A stretch of DNA of 24,000 nt from Peptococcaceae bacterium. Its GTDB lineage: Bacteria; Bacillota; Desulfotomaculia; Desulfotomaculales; JACDOK01. Position numbers and translations under genes: made by a program. The DNA lies in assembly GCA_017656185.1 (NCBI GenBank), contig JACDOK010000005.1, forward strand, positions 49,201-73,200. Reading direction: 5' to 3'. The first letter of the stretch is position 1. Each line of letters opens with the position of its first letter. The notes under the pieces were generated by a model. It did not search any database. It was given only the letters and a program-made list of their open reading frames with translations, and had not been told where the DNA came from. Positions 2,843-21,628 of the stretch are shown in pieces.

Positions 2843-3193
2843 GTGGAGAACTTCCCCTTAGGGGCTAAGGTTCAGATACAGGCCCATCTCAAACCTATGA
2901 CCGTACTTGACACCGAAAAGAAACTGGCACAGAAAACGTGGAAGCGTGTAAAGACGAGCAAAAAAGGTGTTGTCGTAGGTGTGCGATCGGTAAAAGAAGG
3001 GCAAATCCATTGGGACTATGACCGTCGGTTTAGACCTTCACGCCACATCAAGGTGTACCTGGTCGCGGTGGCCATGAACCGGATCCTCAGGGTATTACCG
3101 GCTGACCTTGAGGAATGTACCGAAGAGGAGACCGCGCAAGCAACTGATATTAGGATCCCCGGGCAACTGGAATTGTTTACAGGGGAGAACTAA
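2843..3193 (+). CDS. Hypothetical protein (116 aa)
   Basis: GTG start after GGAGGTG, with coding-like composition. No recognisable domain. Confidence 0.4.
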   Translation: MENFPLGAKVQIQAHLKPMTVLDTEKKLAQKTWKRVKTSKKGVVVGVRSVKEGQIHWDYDRRFRPSRHIKVYLVAVAMNRILRVLPADLEECTEEETAQATDIRIPGQLELFTGEN

Positions 3194-3204
3194 GGTTTCT
3201 GTAA

Positions 3205-4887
3205 ATGGGTGGTGATATAATGTCAGAGCTGATGCCCATACGTGTGCAAGATATAGAACCTAATCCCAGGAACCCTCGGAAAAAGTTTAATGACGCTGCG
3301 CTGGAGGAACTTGCCGCGAGTATTCGTGAAGTAGGCATCTTACAGCCCCTTGTAGTGGTACCGTTAGGCGGTACCGGAAAGGCGGGGCGCTACCGCCTGC
3401 TGTGTGGGGAGCGCCGGTGGAGGGCCGCCCAGCTGGCGGGTATTGAGAGCGTTCCCGCAATTATAGAGGATGGCCTGACACCCGAGCAGGAAGACCAGGT
3501 TATGTTAATTGAAAACCTTCAACGCCAAGATTTAGATCCTCTGGAAGAAGCCCGGGCGCTTAAAGCCCTGATCAAGGAACACGGTTGGAAACAGGTTGAT
3601 CTGGCGGGCAAACTGGGGATCAGTCAGGCTCAGATCGCTAACCGTATCCGGCTGCTCGACCTTCCCCAAGACGTCCAAGAAAATATTTCCCGTGGAATAT
3701 TGTCGGTGGCGCACGGAAAAATTCTCGCCGGGCTGAAACGCTGGCCCGAACTGCAGTCCGAAATAGCGAAAGAAGCGGTTCAATGCAAGTATACCATCCG
3801 GGAACTTGACCAGGCCATTAATTATGCCGTAGTGAGAACCGGCATGCTTTTGGAGCGTGCCGAATTTGACACGACCAAATGTGAAGTATGCAAAGACCGG
3901 GTTACCATCAAATACCCGGCCTGGTCCGATCAAAAGCGGCCGTGGTGTATGCGTCCCGAGTGCTTTAACTCGAAGCAGGCCGAGGCTGTCAACAAGCGGA
4001 AGAAAGAACTTAAGGCCAAACTGGCGGCTAACGACGGCGAGAGAACGCCCCTAAACATAGCCGACCTTGTCGAAGAAAACGTCGAGTTCGTGGATCTCAG
4101 TCTTTCCCACCTGAAAGAAGTCATCAATGATGCTGAATGCAAAAAATGCAAGGACTGCAGGGACGTCCTGGATTACGATGGCAGTACCAAACCGGTGTGT
4201 CTGAATCCTTCTTGCGTCGATAAACAAAAAGCGTCTGCTGCCAGAGCCCAAACAAAAGCGGAAAATGCCAGGGCTCAGGAAAAGATCAAGACGGCGGCAC
4301 TGGAAATCAAGCAGGCTGTGACCGAGTTCATCGATCCCGTGGTCATTGATCTGGTGAAACAAAGTCGGGCGGTTTGGAAAAAGGAGACTAAGGATCACAC
4401 TGATGAAAAACCTTTAATTGATCGTGAAAGTGTCCTTACCCTGAATGGGCTTCTGGCCTATTGGAATACCAAGAACGAGATCTGTAAGGAAGCCACGAGC
4501 ATGCCGCGGCAGCTAGGTGATACTAAAGTCTTTATCCCGGAACAAGACGTAGAGTTTGAGGGCTACGAACCCTACACGTACTCCGGAAAATACGATACCA
4601 TCACTGTCACGGACGGCCGGCTCGTTATTAAGAACAATAACGGTTCTGTTAAAGACCTGCCACCGGCCTTGCCTGTTTACTACCGCATCTTTGCGACACA
4701 ATATGTCGGGTCAAAATATGTTGAGCAGATCGTCGGCATCCGGACACCTTCCCGAACAATCATTGTCTACGGCCACGATAGTGTCATAATGCGCAAGAAT
4801 CTTTTTGACCGGTGGATTAAACTGGTCGAGGAATTGCCGGGTGTCGGTACCTTAGATGAAATTAAAAACGGAGGGGTCAAATCATAA
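3205..4887 (+). CDS. ParB/Spo0J-like N-terminal domain protein with HTH, two Cys4 zinc-ribbon-like clusters and a long C-terminal extension (560 aa; alternative start ATG 3220)
   Basis: IEPNPRNPRK, GILQPLVVV and the LCGERRWRAAQLAG box (ParB GxxRxxA CTP-binding motif). HTH at GWKQVDLAGKLGISQAQIANRIRLLDLP. Cys clusters CEVCKDR...CMRPEC and CKKCKDC...CLNPSC. About 170 further residues with no recognisable fold. Confidence 0.8.
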   Translation: MGGDIMSELMPIRVQDIEPNPRNPRKKFNDAALEELAASIREVGILQPLVVVPLGGTGKAGRYRLLCGERRWRAAQLAGIESVPAIIEDGLTPEQEDQVMLIENLQRQDLDPLEEARALKALIKEHGWKQVDLAGKLGISQAQIANRIRLLDLPQDVQENISRGILSVAHGKILAGLKRWPELQSEIAKEAVQCKYTIRELDQAINYAVVRTGMLLERAEFDTTKCEVCKDRVTIKYPAWSDQKRPWCMRPECFNSKQAEAVNKRKKELKAKLAANDGERTPLNIADLVEENVEFVDLSLSHLKEVINDAECKKCKDCRDVLDYDGSTKPVCLNPSCVDKQKASAARAQTKAENARAQEKIKTAALEIKQAVTEFIDPVVIDLVKQSRAVWKKETKDHTDEKPLIDRESVLTLNGLLAYWNTKNEICKEATSMPRQLGDTKVFIPEQDVEFEGYEPYTYSGKYDTITVTDGRLVIKNNNGSVKDLPPALPVYYRIFATQYVGSKYVEQIVGIRTPSRTIIVYGHDSVIMRKNLFDRWIKLVEELPGVGTLDEIKNGGVKS

Positions 4888-5296: not shown

Positions 5297-5680
5297 ATGT
5301 GTGCAGCGCGTGATAGCCTCGAACATAAATTTGCTGCGCCGGTAGCACGGGTCCTCAAAGAAGAGTTCGGTAGCTTGTCCCGGGCGTTGCGCTACTTTGA
5401 GCAGCGGTTCGGAGCCGCAGCACTGGAAATTATGACTGAAACCAAGGAAATCACGGCGCTTGATCCTGTTTTCCGTACCGGACCAAACGGCGTAGTGTTT
5501 GACCATATGCAGGAGTTTTTGAAGCGGCCTTGGAGCGTAAGCTGTCCAAGGCCCGGAAGTTTAACAGAAATATTTCAGAAGCACGGTTTGATACAAAGGA
5601 ACAAATGCGGCAAGTGGGTTTGGAACCTGGACCGCAGCACGGTAACACTTGAAAAGAAAACATTGCCGAAGGCCGGCTAA
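5297..5680 (+). CDS. Hypothetical protein (127 aa from ATG 5297)
   Basis: In-frame ATG at 5297 preceded by AGGGGG (5281-5286). The tracked start 5234 precedes a terminator hairpin. No recognisable domain. Confidence 0.4.
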   Translation: MCAARDSLEHKFAAPVARVLKEEFGSLSRALRYFEQRFGAAALEIMTETKEITALDPVFRTGPNGVVFDHMQEFLKRPWSVSCPRPGSLTEIFQKHGLIQRNKCGKWVWNLDRSTVTLEKKTLPKAG

Positions 5681-5692
5681 AGCCGGCCTTTT
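5671..5692 (+). terminator. Intrinsic terminator-like hairpin
   Basis: GGCCGGC TAAA GCCGGCC followed by TTTT. The stop codon of the preceding ORF sits in the loop. Confidence 0.55.
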
Positions 5693-5705
5693 CACTGTAA
5701 GGTGG

Positions 5706-6977
5706 GTGGTACCGCTGAAACCGGTAAAAACCATTCTGGCGGTGGTGGACCGCGAGTTCGAACAGTCTTTAATGTCGGCGGATGAATTAGATGTCTTGGC
5801 CACTGCATATTCGCAGGAGGACCTTCTCGCGGAGGTAACGCGCCGCCGCCCGGAAGTAGTTGTTGTATCAGCCGACCTGCAGGGTTCTATGGATCCCTGG
5901 GAAGTTGCCAGGCAGTTACGCACCCAAAACGCCCGGGTTGTCTTCCTGGCGGGCGTTATCGACCGTGAAAGCGATCTTGTGGCAGGCCTGGTGGGGCTGG
6001 CGGTATACGACATCCTTTTCGACCCCGTAACTCCTGATGATGTGATCCACAGCATTATGAATCCTGCCGGCCTGTCAGACTGGGCGGATGTTGTAGTTAA
6101 CCCCACCGGCCCGGCGCCACACGGCGAACCGGAGGGGGAACGAAAGAACAAATTCTTTTTCTGGGGAAAAAGGAAGGATGATAACCACAACGGCCGGGGC
6201 AACGGTACGGTATTTGTATCCCATCCCTTAGTAACTATTTGGAACCCCTCGGGGAGATACAAAAATACCACGGCCCTTAACCTGGCGGTGGCGGCTGCCA
6301 AAGCCGGCCTCAACACCGCGCTTGTCAACTGCGACCTGATGAACCCCGAGCTGGATGTATGGTTTGATATTCCGCAAACGAGTATGGAAAAAGTTCTGCA
6401 GACAGCAAACCATGGGGCCGGGATAATGACTATGGGCAGCAAGCTAAAGCCTGAGCTGGTACCTAATATGCTTAAGATATACGGGTGGGGCGTCTATTAC
6501 CTGCCTGCCGGCAATAAGCTGGATAACCTAGGTACCCCGGACCTGGCCGAGGACCCGAGAGACGCCGTGGCTTTTATGGAAAAGGTCATTTTAGCAGTGT
6601 ATCAGCGCAACGTAAAAGGTAAACCTGCCGTTACCATAATAAATGCCGGTACCGGGTTTGAATACCCGCCTACTTTCGCCGCTTTAAAGAATGCCGGTAT
6701 TGTTGTTATCCCCCTGGCCGGCGAAAGGCAGGAAGCTGAAATTGTAAAGCGGCAGCTGCATGAACTCGCCCGTTTGGACGTTGAACCGCAGTGGGTGGAA
6801 CTTCTCTGGGAACTGGACGGCACCAAACCGTCCAAGCGGATCTGCCGGAAAAGGCTCTCCGTAACTGCGGACCCGGAAGGGTACCTGCAGGCGTCTCACC
6901 GCCGCCGGCCGTACTGCCTGACGGACCGGGGAAGCGTAGAATGGCGGGAAATAATAAACAAGCTTTTGGGGTGGTAG
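5706..6977 (+). CDS. TadZ/CpaE-like protein 1: pseudo-receiver domain + ParA/MinD-like domain with degenerate Walker A (start uncertain, 5649-5745)
   Basis: The N-terminus is CheY-like (KTILAVVD..., EVVVVSADLQG with Ser where the phospho-Asp is expected, VVFLAG). The C-terminal ParA/MinD fold is VTIWNPSGRYKNTTALNLAVAAAKAGLNTALVNCDL; the P-loop position (6243-6272) reads NPSGRYKNTT instead of KGGxGK[ST]T. Confidence 0.6.
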   Translation: MVPLKPVKTILAVVDREFEQSLMSADELDVLATAYSQEDLLAEVTRRRPEVVVVSADLQGSMDPWEVARQLRTQNARVVFLAGVIDRESDLVAGLVGLAVYDILFDPVTPDDVIHSIMNPAGLSDWADVVVNPTGPAPHGEPEGERKNKFFFWGKRKDDNHNGRGNGTVFVSHPLVTIWNPSGRYKNTTALNLAVAAAKAGLNTALVNCDLMNPELDVWFDIPQTSMEKVLQTANHGAGIMTMGSKLKPELVPNMLKIYGWGVYYLPAGNKLDNLGTPDLAEDPRDAVAFMEKVILAVYQRNVKGKPAVTIINAGTGFEYPPTFAALKNAGIVVIPLAGERQEAEIVKRQLHELARLDVEPQWVELLWELDGTKPSKRICRKRLSVTADPEGYLQASHRRRPYCLTDRGSVEWREIINKLLGW

Positions 6978-7445: not shown

Positions 7446-7488
7446 CTATTAGTTGCGGAAAAATAGCAGGAAAAGGAGGTGTTTGATA

Positions 7489-8460
7489 ATGGAACACTGG
7501 CGGTACTGTCCCGAATGTGACAAAGAAACACAATTTATTATTAAAAAAGAACGGGAAGAGCATACGATTAGGGGCGAAAGAATAACGATAGATTTGCCCT
7601 TTTTAGCGTGCTCTCTTTGTGGTCTTGAACTGTTTGATGAAGAACTAACCGGTGGCGCATTACGCGCGGCTTATGATGAAGTTCGAAAAAGAAAAGGGTT
7701 TCCTTCTCCAGATGAGTTAAAAGCAATTCGTAAGAAAATGGATCTAAGCCAGCGAGAGCTTGCTAAACTGCTTGGGTGGAGCCATATTACCATTCATCGT
7801 TATGAGAAAGGAAGTTTTCCCAATGAAGCACATGCAACAGTATTAGAAAGCCTTATTAAGAATCCCACCTATGCTCTGGAACTTCTCAAGAGAAATGCTG
7901 CCAACTTTACTGCTGATGAATTTCACAAAGTGGAATCAAAGTTGCGTCGTTTTGTAACAGAATCGTCTGGCCAAGGGTCTTCACGGGGTAACCGCCCTTT
8001 TGTCATTGAGAAATTGGGTGGAATGGTGGTCTTTTTTGCCCAAAACATTCCTAGCCTTTTTAAAACCAAGCTGCTAAAGCTTTTATGGTATTCTGATTTT
8101 CTCCATTTTAAACGTCACGGCTGCTCAATATCGGGTCTTCAGTATGTTCATCACCGCTGGGGGCCCGTGCCGCGCAACTATACTCAATTACTTGGCCAAC
8201 TTGAGGGCGATGGTGTCATTCGCATTGAGCCGACACTCTTGGGTGAATATGAAGGAGAGCTTATCATTCCATTACGTTATGATGTGGCTAAGATCCTAAC
8301 TGGCGAGGAACAAAACACCATTAACACCGTATTAGGTTACTTTAAGTCTTGGTCGGCCAAGAAATTATCTGACTACTCACATAAAGAAAAAGCCTATGTC
8401 GCTACAGAACATCGTGATCTTATAAGTTACGATTTTGCGAAAGATCTATCCATTAACTAA
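7489..8460 (+). CDS. MqsA-type antitoxin (YgiT zinc ribbon + XRE HTH) fused to a C-terminal Panacea/DUF4065 (SocA-like) domain, 323 aa
   Basis: ATG 7489 preceded by AAGGAGG. The zinc ribbon is CPEC...CSLCG. The HTH is LKAIRKKMDLSQRELAKLLGWSHITIHRYEKG. The C-terminal KLLKLLWYSDFLHFKRHGCSISGLQYVHHRWGPVPRNY fits the DUF4065 signature (KLqKLLYyaD...G.p.tg..y....GPV). Confidence 0.75.
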   Translation: MEHWRYCPECDKETQFIIKKEREEHTIRGERITIDLPFLACSLCGLELFDEELTGGALRAAYDEVRKRKGFPSPDELKAIRKKMDLSQRELAKLLGWSHITIHRYEKGSFPNEAHATVLESLIKNPTYALELLKRNAANFTADEFHKVESKLRRFVTESSGQGSSRGNRPFVIEKLGGMVVFFAQNIPSLFKTKLLKLLWYSDFLHFKRHGCSISGLQYVHHRWGPVPRNYTQLLGQLEGDGVIRIEPTLLGEYEGELIIPLRYDVAKILTGEEQNTINTVLGYFKSWSAKKLSDYSHKEKAYVATEHRDLISYDFAKDLSIN

Positions 8461-9392: not shown

Positions 9393-12086
9393 TTGCGTAA
9401 GATATTTCTTGTTTCAATGGTTCTGCTGCTAGTAATGGCTTTTATAGCCCCGGCGCTGGCCATGCCGGTGGACGAGGTCACGACCTACGGCTTCAGCCCG
9501 GAGAGAAACCGCGAGGCCAAAGTGGACGGGAACCTGTTCCACCTGGCCTGGTACCACGGCGGCAGCGCCGGCTACACTTCCTTTTCCGAACCGTTAATTC
9601 TGGACGGCGACCACTGGGGCGGCCGGCTGGCGGGGAAAACGGTGGTGCTGACCGTCGAGGGCAACCGCCTGTGCGGTTACGTCCTGGACGCCCCCACCCT
9701 GGACAGGGCCCCGACTTTTCATGAAGAAAAGCCGGAGTGGTGGGTACAGCTGAGCGGGGACAAAAACACGAAAAGCGACCCCACATTTGTGGATCGGGGA
9801 AACCGCAAGTACGTCTACGTGGGGACGTACAGCCATTTTCTCAACCTGGTTGATATTACGGACTTTTTCCATCCGACGTTGAAGAAATTTAACGCGCAGT
9901 ACGCCACGGACATTACTTCGTCCCCGCTGGTCTTGGACTGGCACGGCCATGAAGTGGCGGTGGCGACCACCGGTAACACCGGCAAGGTGCTTTTGGTGGT
10001 TGACCAGGAAGAAGTGTTCTACGTCGATGCCGGTGCGGGGCGCACGTCTTCGTCCCCGGCCCCGGTGGCCGGCGGACGGGCCTTCGCGGTCGGCCTGGAC
10101 CAGGGGCCGAGCCGCGGGGAACTGCGCATTTATTATCTGGACGACCTTTTGGATATTCGGGATGGTGAAGTGGTACAAGTCAGCCAAAAGGCGCGAGTAG
10201 CAGAACGGCTTTATTCCGGCCTGGCCGGCAGCTTCGCGGTGGACGGTGACGTTCTTTACTTCGGCGACCAGCAGAGCCACTTGTATGCCTACGATACGAA
10301 GCACAAGACGTTTCTCTGGAAAAACAGGACACACGCTCCTCACTTCGCGCACCGGTCACCGGCGCTGACTTCCGATACCGTGTACTGGTCCGCCGTCGAA
10401 AAACCCGGGCAGATTATAGCTCTGGACAAGGCGACCGGCAGGACGCGCTCAGTCAGCAAGCAGTTCAGCTCGCGGGCCCAGACCCCGCCCACGGTGGCAA
10501 GCACGCCGACAAGCAAGACAATCTGGGCCGGTACCGGGGGCGGCTGGATGGTGGGCCTGCACGCCGACGACCTGCAGAAGGAGCGATTCAAGTCCTTCCA
10601 GGTGGTCACCGGCGCCCTCAAGGACAAGTTCGGCTCCGGCGTCGCGGGTACGGTTTCTGCGGCCGGGAAATGGGCGGTGGCCTCCACCGAAGCCGGCATT
10701 ATCGCCTGGCGCTTGGCTGACAGGTTCAACCTGCAGGCCGTAGACCTGCAGACAGGGATACCGGAAGGTGAGAAGGCCCAGCCCGGGCAAACCTACCAGG
10801 GCACGGCCACCTTCAAATACGAAAGCGGCGATTACGGCACTGTGCCCGAGGCCCCGGTAGGTGTGTTTGTAAACGGTGAATACGTGACCCTCACCGACGA
10901 AAACGGCAAGGAACTGCCCAAGAGAACGATCGACAAACAGACCTTCTACTACCTTGAAGACCTGAAACGCGGCGAGGAACGCACGGTGTACTTCACCTGG
11001 AAAGCCACCAGAGCCGGGAAAATCACGGCGGTCATTAACCTGGACAAGCCGCCGGTAATGTGGTTCTTCCAGGAGGACACCTTTGAGGATAACGAACTGA
11101 CAGTACCCATCCCGATGGACGCGGTCAACCTCGTGGCCGTCAGCATCGACCCCGGCACCGACGAAGCCAAACCGGGGCAGCGCTACCGGGGTACCGTGAC
11201 CTTCGCGAACGACGCGGACGTGCCCGTCACCAATGTCCCTGTCGCCTTCTATAACAACGAGTACCGGGGTTGCCTTACAGATGACTCCGGCAACAAAATC
11301 TCGCGCGTCGATTTCCCGGCGCTTTCAGAACGTACATACAACTTCGAATGGCAGGCACCGCCGTCTGGCACGGTGACGTTGAAAGGGGTCATCGACACAC
11401 CACCGCTGCCGGACGACTACGCGGAAACAGACGAAACAGACAACATCTGTGAAGCCGAAGCACCGGTGATCGGGGCACCGGTGAAAAGCAGCGGCACGCT
11501 AACCTTCCATGCCATCAACCAGGCCGGGCACAAAGGATTGGGACCGGTAAAACACCGTCCTGTCAATGAAGCAAAGTGGACAGACTGGGTGACGGCCATT
11601 TTAAAACCTAAGGCCCCCACACCGCCTAAGGGCACATTGGTGAGCTGGGAGATCACCTCGGCAAAGCTGACTTATCCCAAGAAACACCCCTGCTTCACCT
11701 TCGGTTCGCCCTGGCCGCCACAGGGAACGCGGACCATTAATATGACTCCGAAAGGCCACACTGCCGTAGCAGAGTTCGAAGAAGACTGGTCGCTGAACGG
11801 GGCACCTATTTACGCGCGCTGGATCGACTGCGACGGCAGCTTCATTGACGAAGGGCCCATTCCAGGACCGACACCCTATACGATCACCGCGCAGTACACG
11901 ATCAAGTACACCTATCAGTATCAGGTCAAGCACCGCGACTGCGACACGGTATGTGACGCGGAAGGCAACTGCCACCGCGACTGCGATACGTGGTACGAGA
12001 CGGTAACCAAGACCGGCACCACCAGCGGGACGGCCTCGCAAGACCTGCTGGTGACAGGGACAGGCGTAGGGAGTTATGCCGGTTAA
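9393..12086 (+). CDS. Large secreted protein (~897 aa): signal peptide + PQQ/BamB-like beta-propeller + two CARDB-like Ig-fold repeats + Cys-rich C-terminal region
   Basis: TTG 9393 lies 6 nt after GGAGGG. Signal peptide (M)RKIFLVSMVLLLVMAFIAPALA. Propeller-blade motifs include VLYFGDQQSHLYAYDTKHKTFLWKN and VYWSAVEKPGQIIALDKATGRTR. Two paralogous segments start NLQAVDLQTG...KAQPGQTYQGTATF and NLVAVSIDPG...AKPGQRYRGTVTF, CARDB-like with ...TVYFTWKA/...YNFEWQA. HRDCD occurs twice, 14 residues apart (11931-11996). Confidence 0.7.
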   Translation: MRKIFLVSMVLLLVMAFIAPALAMPVDEVTTYGFSPERNREAKVDGNLFHLAWYHGGSAGYTSFSEPLILDGDHWGGRLAGKTVVLTVEGNRLCGYVLDAPTLDRAPTFHEEKPEWWVQLSGDKNTKSDPTFVDRGNRKYVYVGTYSHFLNLVDITDFFHPTLKKFNAQYATDITSSPLVLDWHGHEVAVATTGNTGKVLLVVDQEEVFYVDAGAGRTSSSPAPVAGGRAFAVGLDQGPSRGELRIYYLDDLLDIRDGEVVQVSQKARVAERLYSGLAGSFAVDGDVLYFGDQQSHLYAYDTKHKTFLWKNRTHAPHFAHRSPALTSDTVYWSAVEKPGQIIALDKATGRTRSVSKQFSSRAQTPPTVASTPTSKTIWAGTGGGWMVGLHADDLQKERFKSFQVVTGALKDKFGSGVAGTVSAAGKWAVASTEAGIIAWRLADRFNLQAVDLQTGIPEGEKAQPGQTYQGTATFKYESGDYGTVPEAPVGVFVNGEYVTLTDENGKELPKRTIDKQTFYYLEDLKRGEERTVYFTWKATRAGKITAVINLDKPPVMWFFQEDTFEDNELTVPIPMDAVNLVAVSIDPGTDEAKPGQRYRGTVTFANDADVPVTNVPVAFYNNEYRGCLTDDSGNKISRVDFPALSERTYNFEWQAPPSGTVTLKGVIDTPPLPDDYAETDETDNICEAEAPVIGAPVKSSGTLTFHAINQAGHKGLGPVKHRPVNEAKWTDWVTAILKPKAPTPPKGTLVSWEITSAKLTYPKKHPCFTFGSPWPPQGTRTINMTPKGHTAVAEFEEDWSLNGAPIYARWIDCDGSFIDEGPIPGPTPYTITAQYTIKYTYQYQVKHRDCDTVCDAEGNCHRDCDTWYETVTKTGTTSGTASQDLLVTGTGVGSYAG

Positions 12087-12109
12087 TAGCAATGAAAGAA
12101 GGTTATTAC

Positions 12110-12142
12110 GAACATCCCGGGAAATCAATTCCCGGGATGTTC
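12110..12142 (+). terminator. Perfect 14-bp-stem hairpin after the large gene (terminator-like, weak U-tract)
   Basis: GAACATCCCGGGAA (12110-12123), a 5-nt loop, then TTCCCGGGATGTTC (12129-12142). The following sequence CCTTAAAAACC is not U-rich. Confidence 0.4.
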
Positions 12143-12190
12143 CTTAAAAACCATCAATGAGATATTGAACCGTTACCGAAAGGGAAGTCT

Positions 12191-12568
12191 ATGGTAAACA
12201 ACCAAAGAATTAAAAGAATAGGAACTTTAGATAGACGTGTGATAGAGCTACTAGGACTTTCTATGGCAGAAGGACTGCCTATTCTGATAGGAGATCAAAA
12301 TATTGCACATATGAAAAAGGCACATCCTGAAGACTATGCTCAATATGGTCATAAGATTGAAGAAATTTTATCCTCGCCAACTTATGTTGCAAAACATCCA
12401 CGAAAGAGTTCCATAGAATATGTTAAGGTCTACGAAGTAGAAAATGATTACGTCCTAGTAGCAGTTTGGGCTTCGGGGAGAGGGGTTTTATTTGCTAGAA
12501 CATTATTTGTAATGTCTAATAAAAAAATAAAAAAATATTTTAGCAAAAATGCTTTTAAGCGATATTGA
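12191..12568 (+). CDS. Small PBECR-like (Barnase/EndoU/ColicinE5-D/RelE-like nuclease) domain protein, 125 aa; family assignment tentative
   Basis: The pattern LPILIGDQNIAHMKKAHPEDY...IEEILSSPTYVAKHP...SIEYVKVY...YVLVAVWASGRGVLFARTLF matches, as I remember it, the small Firmicute/phage PBECR proteins (I.I....I.HI.KRHP.D....I..I...PDYV......SIEF.K....Y..VAV....G..F.RT.Y). The gene is markedly AT-rich relative to its neighbours. Confidence 0.4.
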   Translation: MVNNQRIKRIGTLDRRVIELLGLSMAEGLPILIGDQNIAHMKKAHPEDYAQYGHKIEEILSSPTYVAKHPRKSSIEYVKVYEVENDYVLVAVWASGRGVLFARTLFVMSNKKIKKYFSKNAFKRY

Positions 12569-12570
12569 GT

Positions 12571-12598
12571 TTGACACTATCAGTTATTCTGCTATAAT
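12571..12598 (+). promoter_or_regulatory. Strong sigma-70/SigA-type promoter (TTGACA - 16 nt - TGCTATAAT, extended -10)
   Basis: TTGACA at 12571-12576, TG at 12590-12591 and TATAAT at 12593-12598, starting 3 nt after the preceding stop codon. Confidence 0.6.
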
Positions 12599-12604
12599 AA
12601 TTAG

Positions 12605-12753
12605 TGAAATACGTATAATAACAGGAGAAACTTGAGGGCGGAACAGGCAGCCGCCGCCACGTACATACAAGTGTATGTACGGTAGGAGATGCAGATTGCC
12701 ACCTGCCAAGTTTCTCAACCGTTTCAAGGGCCGCGTTTTTCCGCGGCCTTTTT
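12605..12753 (+). ncRNA. Candidate structured leader/sRNA (unassigned class) ending in an intrinsic terminator
   Basis: Closing 10-bp helix GAGAAACTTG (12625-12634) / CAAGTTTCTC (12707-12716). Internal perfect hairpin GTACATAC-AAGT-GTATGTAC (12661-12680). GGCGG (12637-12641) / CCGCC (12651-12655) forms a hairpin whose loop GGCAG (12646-12650) can alternatively pair with CTGCC (12703-12707), giving pseudoknot potential. The terminator is GGCCGCG (12729-12735) / CGCGGCC (12742-12748) + TTTTT. No plausible ORF. Confidence 0.4.
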
Positions 12754-12778
12754 CATATTTTTAAGTCGTTTATGTTTT

Positions 12779-12807
12779 GCGCCTCGTTAGAAGGCGCTTT
12801 TTGTTTT
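12779..12807 (+). terminator. Second tandem intrinsic terminator
   Basis: GCGCCT (12779-12784) / AGGCGC (12792-12797) followed by TTTTTGTTTT. Confidence 0.55.
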
Positions 12808-12883
12808 GCAACAGCAGAGGTCTCCAGTGTTCTGGTTAGTTAGCCGGATAGGAGAATATGGGGGAATTGGGGGAAACGAGGGG

Positions 12884-13402
12884 GTGATAACGATTCGGGA
12901 TCAGCGCGGTTCCCTGACCTTAACCCTGGTGCCTATCTTTTTGATGATTGCCCTGATGGTATTCTTCATCGTCATCGGTACCGCCTTCGGAGCCAGGAAA
13001 GTTGCCTACTGCACTTACCAGTGGTTTGGGGAAGCGATGGACTTTGCCGCTATGGACGCCAATCAGGACGGGGATTTATCGCAAGTAGCGCTGCGTACTC
13101 CTACGGCCCAAACGGCCTTTACCAGGGTCTTTGCCGAGATGACCGGCACCGAATACATAAACGGTAGCTTTATACCACAAGGGCAAAGTCCGTATCCTGG
13201 GCCGATCACCCTGGACAGCTTCGAACCGGTGCAGCCCGGCGACCCCATTCCGTACGGCACAGCCAGGCAGCCGGGTTATGTAGCGGTTATTACCGTGCCG
13301 GTATTTGGTGACGAATATCCATTTATCGGTGAGCAATATGTCACCGTGCCCATGCGGTATTTTGCCGTAGCCCGGTCTGCGGAAGGCATAATCGATCATT
13401 GA
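12884..13402 (+). CDS. TadG/TadE-like pseudopilin (Flp pilus assembly, Tad_N-like N-terminus), 172 aa
   Basis: In-frame GTG 12884 preceded by ACGAGGGGG. The N-terminus (V)ITIRDQRGSLTLTLVPIFLMIALMVFFIVIG resembles the TadE/G-like signature (ERGsvaveFALvLPvLLll..g). Confidence 0.5.
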   Translation: MITIRDQRGSLTLTLVPIFLMIALMVFFIVIGTAFGARKVAYCTYQWFGEAMDFAAMDANQDGDLSQVALRTPTAQTAFTRVFAEMTGTEYINGSFIPQGQSPYPGPITLDSFEPVQPGDPIPYGTARQPGYVAVITVPVFGDEYPFIGEQYVTVPMRYFAVARSAEGIIDH

Positions 13403-18473: not shown

Positions 18474-19091
18474 ATGCGCAAATTGACCCTTGCGCCGTGG
18501 AAGTCTGTTCCCCCCGCAGTGCTCTTCGCGGGCGGAAAAATCGCGGAGCTGGATATTACCTGGCCGGATTTTTCCGAACCCGGCTACCAGGACCACTTAA
18601 CCGGGCTCCCGAACCGCCGGGCTTTCGACGAGGCCCTGCAGCAGGCCGTGGAACAGGCCGATCTCCAGGGGGCGGCGTTCGGTTTAATTATCCTGGACCT
18701 GGATCATTTCAAACAGATCAACGATACCCATGGCCACCAGGCGGGGGACGCCATACTGCAGTTTTTCGCCACAATGATGGCGTCGGCCACCCGCGACACC
18801 GACCTGGCAGCCAGGTACGGGGGCGAGGAATTCGTAGTGCTGTCACCCGCCTACCAAGAAATTTTCAACATTGGTGAGAGGATACGCCTGGCAGTCAGTC
18901 AGGCGCCTTTTCATTTATCGCCCGATATCCACGTGACCGCTACCTGTTCTTTCGGCTGCGCGGTGTATCCGCAGGATGCACCGGACAAGGATCGGTTAAT
19001 AAAAGCGGCTGATAAGGCCCTGTATACGGCCAAGGAAGCCGGGCGCAACCAGGGACGGCGGGCCGGAGGAGAGGGGGGTGAAAATAGTTGA
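18474..19091 (+). CDS. Stand-alone GGDEF-domain diguanylate cyclase (205 aa) with intact active site and I-site
   Basis: LTGLPNRRAF, DLDHFKQINDTHGHQAGD, I-site RDTD (18792-18803), GGEEF (18819-18833) and KAADKALYTAKEAGRN. Only ~40 residues precede the domain, so there is no sensor domain. Confidence 0.9.
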   Translation: MRKLTLAPWKSVPPAVLFAGGKIAELDITWPDFSEPGYQDHLTGLPNRRAFDEALQQAVEQADLQGAAFGLIILDLDHFKQINDTHGHQAGDAILQFFATMMASATRDTDLAARYGGEEFVVLSPAYQEIFNIGERIRLAVSQAPFHLSPDIHVTATCSFGCAVYPQDAPDKDRLIKAADKALYTAKEAGRNQGRRAGGEGGENS

Positions 19092-20569
19092 TCTGTGTTA
19101 TCGCCGCGGAAGCTGATGTGGCGCAAGTAATAAAGAAAAACCTTGGAGAGATGTACCCGGATTGGACGTTTGAGGTCTGTACGGATGCAGCTGAACTAGA
19201 CAAGTGGAGCCGCAAAAGGCCCGACGTACTGGTGTTGAGCCGTTTTCTTCCCGGTGAAGACGCGTGGTCATTATTGCCAGATATTCCCGTAATGTTTGCG
19301 GCTACCCATGTCGTTTTACTGGTCGGGGAAGATTCGGAACAAACGCGGTCGTACATCAGGAAAGCAGCACAATATGGGCTCGAAAACTACGTTTCCGGCA
19401 CACTACCCGGCGATCGGCCTTATACCTTGCCCATAGCATTGCAGTACGGGCGGGCCGAGGTTATGGGCGGGAAGAGCCGGCGGAATAAGGTGCGTGCCCG
19501 TCAGGATTCAATACCTGACCGAAAATCTCAAAATCAAAATATAGAATGCGATGACCGGTTACAGAAGCAATGTTTAGACAAACTTTCATACCAGTGTTGT
19601 TTATACAATCCGCCTCGGCCCGGGCAGAACGGTCAGGATGAAGCACAAACTATGACGACCCCTGCCTGGGGGTCTTTTTTACGTTCCGAAGACGATGTTC
19701 CCAGGCAAAAATGGAATGCCCAGCGCGGGATCCTGGTAGTCGTCACGTGCAACAAAGGCGGTGCCGGAAAGACCACTACCGTTGCAACGCTGGCTGTGGC
19801 GCTGGCAAATGCGGATATGGAAGTTATTGCCGTTGACACCGATTTTGAGGGCCCGGATCTGGAAACATTCTTTCAATTACAGGTGGAGCGTGGGCGTGGC
19901 ATAGAAGCCCTGGCAGGACGCACAAAAAGCCTGGAATTGCTGGTTGAACAATTGCTTCTGACCCCTGAGAAATACCCTAACCTGCGGATACTACCTGGCC
20001 CGGCCGACAGGACGATTTTGCCTGAAACCCTGTTTCGTCCTGGGGAGTTGGCAGACATCCTGGACATACTGGTCGGATGGGCACCGGTAGTAATAGTAGA
20101 TACGCCGCCTAATTTTTGGACGAAGCCCTGGTTGCCGGACGTGTTCAATATGGCTGACCTGGTTATAGCTGTAGTGGATCAGTCACAGTTCACTATGGAA
20201 GACATCCGCAGGTACGCTCCGAAGTTACTGCAAATGGGCGTGCGCCCCGAGAAGATAAGGCTGGTATTGAATAAGTTCTTGCCACGTCTCCACAATCCGC
20301 GCAAAGTGGAAGAAGCCTTCTGTAGCGGTTTTAAAAGCAGTGTGCCGCGCAAGGTTTTGCCCTGCGTTATTGCCACCATCCCTAATGACTGGGATGCCCA
20401 CGTTTTAAAGGGATATAAGGGTGAAGCGGTGGGGCTGGATGACGCACGCAGCCAGTGGCACCATCTTGCGGCGGAAGTTGCTGCCGAGGCCGGGCAGCGT
20501 TATGTGAAGCCGGAACAGAAGGCGAAAAAGGGCCTTTTGGGGTTGGGGTTTTTAAGGAGGAGGAAGTAG
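19088..20569 (+). CDS. tadZ: TadZ/CpaE-like protein 2: pseudo-receiver domain + ParA/MinD ATPase with intact deviant Walker A, 493 aa
   Basis: TTG overlaps the GGDEF stop (TTGA). REC-like features: ICVIAAEAD, then DVLVLSRFLPGED with Ser at the phospho-acceptor position. A low-complexity linker follows. ATPase features: ILVVVTCNKGGAGKTTTVATLAVALA, VIAVDTDFEGPD, VVIVDTPP. Confidence 0.75.
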   Translation: MICVIAAEADVAQVIKKNLGEMYPDWTFEVCTDAAELDKWSRKRPDVLVLSRFLPGEDAWSLLPDIPVMFAATHVVLLVGEDSEQTRSYIRKAAQYGLENYVSGTLPGDRPYTLPIALQYGRAEVMGGKSRRNKVRARQDSIPDRKSQNQNIECDDRLQKQCLDKLSYQCCLYNPPRPGQNGQDEAQTMTTPAWGSFLRSEDDVPRQKWNAQRGILVVVTCNKGGAGKTTTVATLAVALANADMEVIAVDTDFEGPDLETFFQLQVERGRGIEALAGRTKSLELLVEQLLLTPEKYPNLRILPGPADRTILPETLFRPGELADILDILVGWAPVVIVDTPPNFWTKPWLPDVFNMADLVIAVVDQSQFTMEDIRRYAPKLLQMGVRPEKIRLVLNKFLPRLHNPRKVEEAFCSGFKSSVPRKVLPCVIATIPNDWDAHVLKGYKGEAVGLDDARSQWHHLAAEVAAEAGQRYVKPEQKAKKGLLGLGFLRRRK

Positions 20570-20572
20570 TTT

Positions 20573-21628
20573 ATGGGCCTGAGTAAGGAAACGATAGAAC
20601 GCATAAAAGAAATGGCAACATTTCTTAGTGAGGATTACATAGCAGAAGCCTTCAATGTGCCCCCTGACGTCGTTAGAGCCGTTTTGAGGGATGAAATTGA
20701 ACCGGACGATGCAGATAATGAGAGTTCCCCGTTGAATGCCCAGGATCGTATCCAGGTGGTGGAACGGTCGAAATTCGTGCGGAACCGGACGGTAACGGTC
20801 ATCGCGCCCGGCGGCGGGAAAGGCAAGACGTCCCTGCTGGCATCCCTGGCACTAACCGCCGCCTTGTACGTACCCGAGCAGCGGCCTGTAGCCCTGATAG
20901 ACTGTGCGGAAGTTTCTAAGCTGGGAACCTGGCTGCAGGGCCTAGGCTACCTGGATATGGTTGCAGGGAATGATACATACCCCACAATCGCAGATTGGCC
21001 GGAAAAAGACGAACAATTTTACCTGGAAGAACTCACGATCCAACATCCCCAACTGGAAAATCTATACCTCGTGCCGGGTGCATATACGGTCGAACAGTGG
21101 AGAAACATCGGCATGGCAAGAATGCGTAATGCCATTGCAACTTTGCAGCGCAGTTGCGAAATGGTGTTCGTGGATCTACCGGCAGATGTCGCAGTGATCG
21201 GAAAACTCCTGCCGCTGCACGATTTGATAGTGGTAGTGATCACCGCAGATTATCCCGGAGTTGAAGGATTATTGCAGTTGGTGCCGTTGCTCAAACACTT
21301 GAGTGTACTTGAAAGGTGTCTTTTGGTTCTGAACAGGTTGGGTTGTGCGGGCGGTCTGTCACAAAAAGACTGCCGTCAGGTATTGCGCCAGGTGCTGGAC
21401 GAGGACGTGATATTCGGCGGGCTGGTACCGGAAGAGCCCGGCCTGCCGCAGCAATTTAAAAAGGGCAGGCCTCTTGTGCTGGCGGACCCGCAGTCACCGT
21501 ACTGTGCTGAAATACGGCACATTCTAAGCCAGTTATGCCCGGACTGGAAACTTAACGGACATAACCAACGCAATGAGAAAAACGGTGGCATTATCGGTAT
21601 TCTGAAAAAGCTGAGAAGAGGTGGTTAG
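20573..21628 (+). CDS. ParA/MinD-family ATPase 3 (CpaE-like) with short N-terminal helical/HTH-like segment, 351 aa
   Basis: ATG after GGAGGAGGAAG. Walker A-like VTVIAPGGGKGKTSLLASLALTAA, then VALIDCAE and MVFVDLPADV. Confidence 0.6.
   Translation: MGLSKETIERIKEMATFLSEDYIAEAFNVPPDVVRAVLRDEIEPDDADNESSPLNAQDRIQVVERSKFVRNRTVTVIAPGGGKGKTSLLASLALTAALYVPEQRPVALIDCAEVSKLGTWLQGLGYLDMVAGNDTYPTIADWPEKDEQFYLEELTIQHPQLENLYLVPGAYTVEQWRNIGMARMRNAIATLQRSCEMVFVDLPADVAVIGKLLPLHDLIVVVITADYPGVEGLLQLVPLLKHLSVLERCLLVLNRLGCAGGLSQKDCRQVLRQVLDEDVIFGGLVPEEPGLPQQFKKGRPLVLADPQSPYCAEIRHILSQLCPDWKLNGHNQRNEKNGGIIGILKKLRRGG

Follow-up and report, generated by a model that had tools for sequence, protein, structure and literature searches.

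A skipping-rope RNA gene paired with a predicted PBECR3 ribonuclease gene in a low-GC island upstream of tad genes

The skipping-rope motif (Rfam RF02924) was described by Weinberg et al. in 2017 (PMC5737381) as a highly conserved RNA with a loop-loop pseudoknot that is found outside conserved 5′ untranslated regions (UTRs) and is associated with the gene for a specific protein, which lies close by in one orientation or the other. Because the RNA rarely lies in 5′ UTRs and is followed by its own Rho-independent terminator, the paper calls a riboswitch role "improbable"; it reports the family to be without self-cleavage and without small-molecule binding, and its authors take the motif to carry out a "biochemically challenging task." Our literature search found no functional study of skipping-rope RNA after 2017. 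Here, we analyze a member of this family in a 24,000-nucleotide stretch of DNA from a Peptococcaceae bacterium (hereafter the window), where the RNA lies directly 3′ of a small gene for a protein of the PBECR3 family and a short distance upstream of a run of tad genes. An earlier interpretation made from the nucleotide sequence (the sequence-only reading) had proposed that the RNA is a riboswitch or attenuator of an ≈11-kb tad operon or else a stand-alone small RNA.

Several described systems combine a nuclease-type protein with a noncoding RNA. Like the window, the type III toxin–antitoxin systems ToxIN, CptIN, and TenpIN pair a small endoribonuclease-type protein with such an RNA on plasmids or prophages, with the RNA in excess, and in these systems, the pseudoknotted RNA neutralizes the protein by direct binding. 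Their toxins, however, belong to the ToxN/AbiQ, CptN, and TenpN families, whereas the window protein belongs to PBECR3/PBECR2 (BECR); their RNAs are tandem 34- to 45-nt repeats upstream of the toxin gene with a terminator in between, whereas the window RNA is a single 70- to 90-nt junction that lies downstream of the gene and has a promoter of its own; and their antitoxins evolve rapidly, whereas the skipping-rope sequence is highly conserved. A canonical type III system was considered for the window and rejected, as neither a ToxN/AbiQ, CptN, or TenpN toxin nor upstream tandem repeats are present there (one other locus, L114, shows both features).

In the AbiF–RCd22 system of a Clostridioides difficile prophage, a structured noncoding RNA neutralizes the adjacent RNase-like protein AbiF in cis as well as in trans by direct RNA–protein interaction (bioRxiv 10.1101/2025.04.15.648962). 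The likeness is that of a structured RNA beside an RNase-like abortive infection protein, and skipping-rope RNAs, too, can adjoin abortive infection genes, namely those of the AbiD/Abi_2 type; AbiF–RCd22 differs in its RNA (the abiF motif), its protein family, and the placement of its RNA upstream of the gene. The family of the window protein has the same predicted fold class as the BECR RNase toxins (colicin D/E5, RelE, BrnT, and the toxins of contact-dependent inhibition [CDI]) and the phage PBECR domains (PMC5512222), with similar conserved His, Arg, and Thr/Ser-type residues and the same carriage by phages, plasmids, and conflict systems. Those toxins are neutralized by proteins, whereas PBECR3 has no conserved protein partner and its only universal neighbor is the RNA. 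Finally, the DUF3800-I to -XI and drum motifs (Weinberg et al. 2017) are likewise highly conserved structured RNAs with 3′ terminators and one nearby protein family, but they have unrelated structures and other partner proteins.

A scan of the window against Rfam 15 gave a single match above threshold, a full-length hit to RF02924 (E = 1.9e-11 for the whole window; Table 1), and the same RNA scores 65 bits with a covariance model, R1, that was built for this purpose. It carries the conserved GAGG-NCGGAAC-GGCAG-CCG and GGAGAUG-GCC-type nucleotides of the family. The window RNA is an ordinary member of the known skipping-rope family: the full covariance match, the helices, the conserved nucleotides, the loop-loop pseudoknot, and the terminator all agree with the description, and nothing essential differs, the peculiarities of the window copy being an unusually long P3, a 4-bp P4, and two terminators. 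A permissive E-value scan of positions 12400 to 12950 against Rfam returned no riboswitch class, its subthreshold matches being terminator look-alikes; the sequence-only reading had likewise recognized no riboswitch class in the RNA. A weak R1 match elsewhere in the window, at 6247 to 6318 on the reverse strand (12.4 bits, E = 0.8), is noise.

Covariation was examined in sequences from 74 relatives, 70 of them distinct. The closing helix, which the sequence-only reading had described as a perfect 10-bp pairing, corresponds to P1 and forms in 70 of 70 distinct members, with lengths of 6 to 13 bp and from unrelated sequences. The GGCGG/CCGCC hairpin pointed out in the same place is P2, which is paired in 99.1% of cells and shows compensatory changes at three of its five pairs; P4 is paired in 99.4% of cells, with compensatory changes at all five pairs. 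P3, correctly seen as a perfect 8-bp hairpin and in fact extending to 9 bp, is a variable and optional arm: 29 of 70 members form a hairpin of 3 bp or more there, the others having a linker of 8 to 10 nt, and the window hairpin is the longest of the 70 at that position. An alignment of 18 sequences with MAFFT and RNAalifold recovered only P2 and P4 because the sequence ends were out of register, and P1 and P3 were analyzed with a custom script.

The same sequences reveal a pairing between GGCA in the P2 loop and UGYC in the P4 loop that is absent from the search model. It is formed in 95% of cells, its central pair being C-G in 62 sequences and U-A in 8 and the adjacent pair being G-U in 53 and G-C in 17. 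Covariation, therefore, supports the helices P1, P2, and P4 as well as this loop-loop pseudoknot, and we infer that this loop-loop contact is the tertiary pairing of the published skipping-rope drawing. A different pseudoknot had been proposed beforehand, between a loop GGCAG and the CTGCC next to the closing helix; this version fails in the relatives, where its two central pairs are unpaired in 33 and 51 of the 70 sequences, and no measure of it exceeds that in shuffled sequences. In the resulting fold, P1, P2, and P4 would meet at a junction to which P3 can be added, and the 4-bp kissing interaction of the P2 and P4 loops would lock the whole.

The RNA also has the boundaries of a gene of its own. 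Its σ70/σA-type promoter matches the consensus at 12 of 12 positions, has an extended −10 element, and is the sole 12/12 site in the 24-kb window, where the runner-up reaches 10/12; the claim that this is the best promoter of the window was, thus, accurate. Only 2 nt separate the end of the PBECR3 gene from the −35 box and 58 nt separate it from the RNA, and the position of the promoter would place the transcription start near 12604 to 12606. In loci where the RNA accompanies PBECR3 (n = 68), the promoter ahead of the RNA reaches 12/12 in roughly every second case and falls below 10/12 in hardly any, and the median gap from the PBECR3 stop codon to the RNA is 55 nt. The promoters ahead of the PBECR3 genes themselves are mostly weak, the best one in the window reaching 8/12. 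For most orphan RNAs, with no PBECR3 gene nearby, there is no dedicated promoter, the best match being 8/12 or lower in 24 of 39.

At the 3′ end, the two tandem intrinsic terminators anticipated from the sequence were found, the stem of the first beginning 12 nt past the end of the RNA. Among the 74 loci, a terminator begins within 60 nt after the RNA in 65, compared with 12 of 74 upstream control regions, and 17 loci have at least two terminators within 150 nt. The second terminator of the window has no counterpart in other cassettes and may be a backup terminator or part of the host intergenic region. The segment from 12605 to 12760 folds with −58.2 kcal/mol, compared with −38.6 ± 3.9 kcal/mol for dinucleotide shuffles (z = −5.1), none of the 200 shuffles being as stable. 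Together, these data show that the promoter and terminator belong to the gene–RNA module and that the RNA has an independent gene of its own, with a strong promoter and a terminator. The suggestion of a stand-alone small RNA was, thus, essentially right, although its tie to the small gene just upstream had gone unnoticed.

Table 1. Features of the PBECR3–RNA cassette and its surroundings (window coordinates unless a locus is named)
Feature	Position	Strand	Details
Low-GC island with gene, RNA, and terminators	12090–12810		31–39% GC over 12100–12700 vs ≈57% in flanks
PBECR3 gene	12191–12568	+	125 aa, stop included; Pfam PBECR3 E 9.8e-25, PBECR2 E 3.7e-10
Trp93 codon (TGG)	12467–12469	+	In VAVR[AV][ST] motif; family has Arg
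Promoter of RNA, σ70/σA-type consensus	12571–12598	+	TTGACA 12571–12576, 16 nt, TG 12590–12591, c, TATAAT 12593–12598
P1, 5′ strand	12625–12634	+	GAGAAACTTG; perfect 10 bp with 12707–12716
Skipping-rope RNA (Rfam RF02924)	12627–12714	+	57.2 bits vs gathering score 36.7; E 1.9e-11; model positions 1–80 of 80
P2 hairpin	12637–12655	+	GGCGG 12637–12641, loop AACAGGCAG, CCGCC 12651–12655
Pseudoknot strand GGCA, P2 loop	12646–12649	+	Pairs with UGCC; 4 Watson–Crick pairs in window
P3 arm	12660–12681	+	GTACATAC 12661–12668 with GTATGTAC 12673–12680; C12660–G12681 makes 9 bp; loop AAGU
Junction	12683–12690	+	UAGGAGAU; invariant or near-invariant alignment columns
P4 hairpin	12691–12706	+	GCAG 12691–12694, loop AUUGCCAC, CUGC 12703–12706
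Pseudoknot strand UGCC, P4 loop	12697–12700	+	Partner of GGCA 12646–12649
P1, 3′ strand	12707–12716	+	CAAGTTTCTC
Intrinsic terminator 1 of RNA	12726–12761	+	Stem 12726–12751 (10 pairs, 7 G-C), then T-rich tail
Intrinsic terminator 2	12779–12807	+	Stem 12779–12797, then T run to 12807
Skipping-rope RNA copies, L042	3294–3362, 4408–4485, 4506–4576		
Skipping-rope RNA copies, L019	8064–8232		
Skipping-rope RNA copies, L068	3606–3684		

The gene upstream of the RNA scores 87.2 bits against the PBECR3 profile (PF18812; curated cutoff, 30) and has 16 homologues at 46 to 72% identity. Iyer et al. (2017, PMC5512222) predicted that PBECR3 proteins, which occur in phages and conjugative elements, are metal-independent RNases with a BECR fold, and the window protein is, likewise, predicted from its sequence to be a BECR-fold RNase. 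Its AlphaFold2 model has a mean pLDDT of 94.4, and the nearest Protein Data Bank (PDB) structures in a Foldseek search are BrnT (E = 0.24), a Streptococcus pneumoniae toxin–antitoxin module, and a CDI toxin, all of them nonsignificant (E of at least 0.24). Sequence searches gave no match among solved structures in the PDB, none in the PADLOC defense library, and no type III toxin in NCBIfam, where the single match was spurious. Among phage families, PBECR3 matches one PHROG, of unknown function, and annotated GenBank phages contain no homologue.

From Iyer et al. 2017 and a 2026 BECR preprint, the catalytic-type residues of PBECR3 would be a His of the N-terminal helix and an Arg and a Thr/Ser of the C-terminal strands. 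The window protein retains H40, H45, K79, and R103, whereas R93 is replaced by Trp. Among 66 distinct members of the family, 65 have Arg at this position, and the window protein is the lone exception. The R93W substitution may attenuate or inactivate the window nuclease, or it may be a sequencing error.

To see how closely gene and RNA are linked, we compared loci found from either side. In the protein-anchored search, the RNA adjoins the gene in 72 of 74 loci, and the remaining two contigs end 166 and 128 nt past the gene. Exact-protein look-ups with four homologues gave five evaluable places, in four of which the RNA lies 29 to 137 nt past the stop codon; in the fifth, the contig ends after 166 nt, and a truncated RNA match begins at its very edge. 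Protein-alignment scans gave 49 genome and 16 viral loci, 64 of the 65 showing an R1 match of 52 to 85 bits a short way downstream of the gene, and on small plasmids, the RNA accompanies PBECR3 in four of four cases (Bacillus subtilis pTA1060, a 9-kb Clostridium botulinum plasmid, and Fusobacterium plasmids). The RNA-anchored search found PBECR3 next to the RNA in 11 of 21 viral loci and in 47 of ≈80 model-confirmed metagenome loci, 21 of 120 metagenome matches having been discarded as pattern-only and unconfirmed by the covariance model. The dependence is, therefore, asymmetric, since PBECR3 is essentially never seen without the RNA and the RNA is often seen without PBECR3.

No other neighbor of PBECR3 is conserved: the largest cluster of upstream genes accounts for 4 of 65 loci and is made up mostly of assorted helix-turn-helix (HTH) proteins. 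The RNA lies on the strand of the gene except in the Bacillus and Planococcus copies, its core is nearly invariant across Bacillota, Fusobacteriota, and Synergistota, and the contexts of the pairs include primases, integrases, and small plasmids. The RNA is the sole conserved partner of the predicted RNase gene, and the pair is mobile. We consider it very probable that the RNA is an obligate functional partner of PBECR3.

The loci also show how the two members decay and vary. Six or seven PBECR3 genes that are frameshifted, truncated, or lack the N terminus stand beside intact, high-scoring RNAs in L047, L074, L073, L076, L018/L092, and L041; an intact PBECR3 gene beside a degenerate RNA was not seen among the loci compared. 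One locus (L046) contains two modules in tandem (2301–2812 and 2914–3476). The first has a divergent PBECR-like gene (E = 1e-13 to a profile of our own), after which comes an RNA that is also divergent (14.8 bits) and whose P2 loop is enlarged, and the second has a canonical PBECR3 gene with a 12/12 promoter of its own and a canonical RNA.

Some loci depart from the usual layout. Two or three skipping-rope copies, some of them degenerate, lie near one PBECR3 gene in L042, L019, and L068 (Table 1). In pTA1060 (L096; NC_001766.1, 5763–6260) and in L027 and L028, the RNA is convergent with the PBECR3 gene on the opposite strand, and in these three and L026, a protein of ≈300 residues (with an HTH_36 domain in L026) is encoded immediately upstream of PBECR3. 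RefSeq names the nuclease "PBECR2 nuclease fold domain-containing protein," and the available gene tables do not include the RNA.

In the window, gene, RNA, and terminators together occupy an island of low GC content (Table 1). The closest syntenic relative (L093) lacks this segment, its homology to the window stopping near 12035 to 12086 and restarting at 12878. The corresponding slot (3916–4383 in L093) holds a gene for a 155-residue coiled-coil repeat protein where the window has the PBECR3–RNA cassette, so the slot is variable; because the slot is filled by another gene in L093, the window-specific segment is delimited only to about 12087 to 12877, with no exact ends. At the DNA level, the window cassette is homologous to other cassettes from 12218 to 12727, a stretch that ends before the terminators.

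In the reading that we favor, with a probability of about 60%, positions 12191 to 12807 are a self-contained, horizontally acquired PBECR3–RNA module whose RNA acts in trans on the RNase. The module would comprise the small PBECR3 gene, encoding a predicted metal-independent RNase with the BECR fold, akin to colicin D/E5 and RelE, and directly 3′ of it, a skipping-rope RNA gene with its own consensus promoter and its own intrinsic terminator or terminators. It would have landed in a variable slot of a conserved operon of a Cu-amine-oxidase-like gene, a gene for a large β-propeller protein, and the tad genes, and it would exert no designed control over tad; the strong promoter and the terminators would, at most, alter downstream transcription by accident. 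The RNA would be made in large excess and act in trans on the RNase, most probably keeping it inactive as an RNA antitoxin or pseudosubstrate, and the gene–RNA pair would serve plasmids and prophages as an addiction or abortive infection module.

That the RNA neutralizes the nuclease, and is neither a cofactor nor a substrate of it, is a tentative proposal to which we give slightly less than an even chance. It is suggested by the RNA promoter being far stronger than the PBECR3 promoter, mostly in PBECR3-linked copies; by the one-sided decay described previously, together with R93W in the window; by the pairing of a divergent protein with a divergent RNA in L046; by the presence of the module on small plasmids, where addiction modules are typical; and by the AbiF–RCd22 precedent.

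Several observations weigh against the module acting in this manner. The RNA core is ≈90% identical among loci, compared with 35 to 70% for the protein, unlike the fast-coevolving antitoxins of type III systems. One PBECR3 locus (L039) has no RNA in the 128 nt of contig left after the gene. The BECR/RNase assignment comes from Pfam, the structure-search neighbors being nonsignificant and the PDB, PADLOC, and NCBIfam adding no support. Orphan RNAs are numerous, lying in phage tRNA arrays or after housekeeping genes. The same RNA also trails toxins of unrelated folds (AbiD, MazF-like, and CptN with its own CptI repeats), which argues against a one-to-one cognate inhibitor and is better accommodated by a generic substrate mimic or another role. 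Because the RNA outconserves the protein, follows other toxins, and sits in tRNA arrays, a cofactor or substrate role and a generic decoy role both stay alive as alternatives to the neutralizing module.

The stronger of these alternatives, which we nevertheless regard as rather improbable, is that PBECR3 depends on the RNA as a cofactor, guide, or activator or has it as a dedicated substrate, the two forming a working ribonucleoprotein with no inhibition involved; the RNase would be active only with the RNA, or the active species would arise when the RNase processes the RNA. Such a role accounts equally well for the near absence of PBECR3 genes without the RNA and is in keeping with the RNA being the only conserved partner, with the very high conservation of its core, and with the "biochemically challenging task" envisaged by the discoverers (PMC5737381). 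Against it stand the orphan RNAs, which are common and keep all conserved nucleotides with no PBECR3 nearby, so the RNA does not need PBECR3. Broken PBECR3 genes beside intact RNAs and the stronger RNA promoter are, moreover, what is expected of a toxin and its antidote, whereas a cofactor predicts matched amounts.

The orphan copies bear on a second alternative, that the RNA has a general role apart from PBECR3: as a broad decoy, or by mimicking some conserved RNA of the cell, it would buffer many toxins of the endoribonuclease type. Its closing stem and two loop-joined arms would be tRNA-like, it would serve phages in counter-defense, and PBECR3 would merely be its commonest neighbor. In phage and metagenome tRNA arrays, the RNA is placed like a tRNA gene (L005 4886–6123, L011 3759–8424, L007 4227–4449, L102, and L204); in L011, it begins 1 nt past tRNA-Leu and is followed by a macro-domain gene. 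Drum RNAs (RF02958) lie beside the skipping-rope RNA in L007 and in the same array in L011. Other copies directly follow toxin genes. After an AbiD/Abi_2 gene (L133 3377–4390; also L100, L187, and L218; Pfam E = 2e-41, PADLOC E = 1e-82), the RNA starts 4 nt past the stop codon, which leaves no room for a promoter of its own and would make it a 3′ UTR element with a terminator after it. In L114 (840–1535), a complete type III CptIN system, with two ≈50-nt CptI-like repeats, a terminator, and cptN (NCBIfam equivalog, 109 bits), is followed by a skipping-rope RNA that overlaps the cptN stop codon, and an integrase-like open reading frame (ORF; identified by eye) comes next. The RNA abuts a PemK/MazF-like toxin-domain gene in L131 (410–824) and lies 167 nt after such a gene in L016 (6564–7571).

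These placements, together with the near invariance of the core across three phyla, are what a general decoy would explain. The links to other toxins are few, however, amounting to a single lineage with AbiD, a single locus with CptN, and two genes of the PemK-like type, and adjacency there could be due to chance, those loci being toxin-rich mobile DNA. Neither ARAGORN nor Rfam calls the RNA a tRNA, and the nearly complete dependence of PBECR3 on the RNA is explained no better by a general decoy than by the neutralizing module. We consider this alternative quite improbable. An extension of the neutralizing module that takes up some of the same observations would make PBECR3 and the skipping-rope RNA an undescribed class of RNA-antitoxin (type III-like) system for addiction or abortive infection, in which one highly conserved, pseudoknotted RNA expressed from its own consensus promoter would neutralize a BECR-fold RNase as a mimic of its substrate; since the RNA would be a mimic and not a coevolved binder, it could also buffer the unrelated toxins AbiD, CptN, and MazF-like proteins, and the copies in phage tRNA arrays would be counter-defense decoys. 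This proposal is speculative, and we think it unlikely to hold in full.

The riboswitch or attenuator proposed in the sequence-only reading, which would act in the tad 5′ leader by termination or read-through and possibly sense a second messenger, was founded on a strong promoter, a structured RNA, and two terminators located 77 nt before the first tad gene, with no good promoter in between. That last observation stands, but it has no bearing on the RNA: the closest relative has an intrinsic terminator directly before the ribosome-binding site of its first tad gene (L093 4415–4457) and, likewise, no promoter there, so the lack of a tad promoter is ancestral and is no evidence for a leader RNA. 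In the 92 related RNA/PBECR3 loci, the comparison found no homologue of five window proteins, namely the tad ATPase and the TadE-like, T2SSF, Cu-amine-oxidase-like, and 902-residue proteins. Conversely, homologues of the RNA sought upstream of tad operons were absent: the three syntenic tad loci (in a Bacillota metagenome-assembled genome, Moorella thermoacetica, and a Moorellaceae genome) contain neither PBECR3 nor the RNA, their best R1 score of 12 bits being noise.

The arrangement of the element itself also disagrees with a leader. The RNA follows another gene, PBECR3, in a fixed order; its homology stops at 12727; and it lies in a foreign low-GC island. The minimum free energy fold of 12605 to 12760 forms the RNA domain and the terminator at once, P1 ending at 12716 and the terminator stem starting at 12726; as these do not overlap, there is no obvious competing fold, though the search of suboptimal folds was not exhaustive. 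Rfam gives no riboswitch match, the discoverers reached their own verdict of "improbable" (PMC5737381), and nothing supports the suggested link of the RNA to the in-operon GGDEF gene or c-di-GMP. A tad riboswitch is, in our view, very improbable, and we are nearly certain that the RNA belongs to the skipping-rope family and is independent of tad. What would have been annotated as a tad riboswitch, possibly sensing c-di-GMP, is replaced by a known RNA family and a mobile nuclease cassette inside the operon.

Least credible of all, with next to no weight, is an antisense small RNA against PBECR3 or tad mRNA (type I style) or a DNA-level element such as an attC-like recombination or integration target: integrase or recombinase genes lie just past the RNA in L114, L021, and L212, and the RNA stands at the 3′ end of small cassette-like genes, but shuffled RNAs pair at least as well as the real one with the PBECR3 mRNA, with the region around its translation start, and with the tad leader (duplex energies, z = +0.7 to +2.6), the Bacillus and Planococcus copies have a flipped orientation of RNA to gene, the window copy has no integrase nearby, and the conserved promoter and terminator and the strand-specific G-U pairs point to a transcribed RNA. 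A type I toxin–antitoxin system was rejected on the same two grounds of complementarity and orientation.

The interest of the locus lies in the strength and asymmetry of the link between the RNA and RNase-toxin genes, through which the function of the skipping-rope RNA becomes testable. The data that bear on this function are the dependence of PBECR3 on the RNA, the promoter linked to PBECR3, the decay of the nuclease genes, the occurrence beside three other families of RNase toxins, and the copies in phage tRNA arrays. If the RNA is an antitoxin or decoy, it would represent a new RNA-based control of RNase toxins, and genes of pTA1060 and other well-known plasmids would gain a function.

The host operon is conserved in the syntenic loci, where the tad gene order is Cu_amine_oxidN1, a large protein, a small Tad protein, and the ATPase, followed by SAF, GGDEF, and a ParA-like gene; the Bacillota metagenome-assembled genome is 66% identical to the window in the ATPase and 76% in the TadE-like protein. 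In Moorella, the genes for the large protein and the TadE-like protein overlap, indicating one operon. The first tad gene of the window probably starts at GTG 12884 or a nearby ATT, after a G-rich, Shine–Dalgarno-like run; the start listed for its ORF, TTG 12806, is unlikely to be real because it lies inside terminator 2.

Elsewhere, the window encodes a ParB/KorB-like protein, ParA-like ATPases, and an MqsA/HTH-SocA-Panacea antitoxin fusion (3205–4887, 5649–6977, 7453–8460, and 19088–21628). On the basis of these ParB/KorB, ParA-like, and Panacea-domain genes, the window looks like part of a plasmid or an integrative conjugative element with a Tad/T4SS-like apparatus. At the left edge of the low-GC island, just past the stop codon of the gene for the 902-residue protein, a perfect 14-bp inverted repeat (12110–12142; GAACATCCCGGGAA / TTCCCGGGATGTTC) has a 5-nt loop and no T tail, and it could be a terminator or stabilizer of the upstream gene or a feature of the junction.

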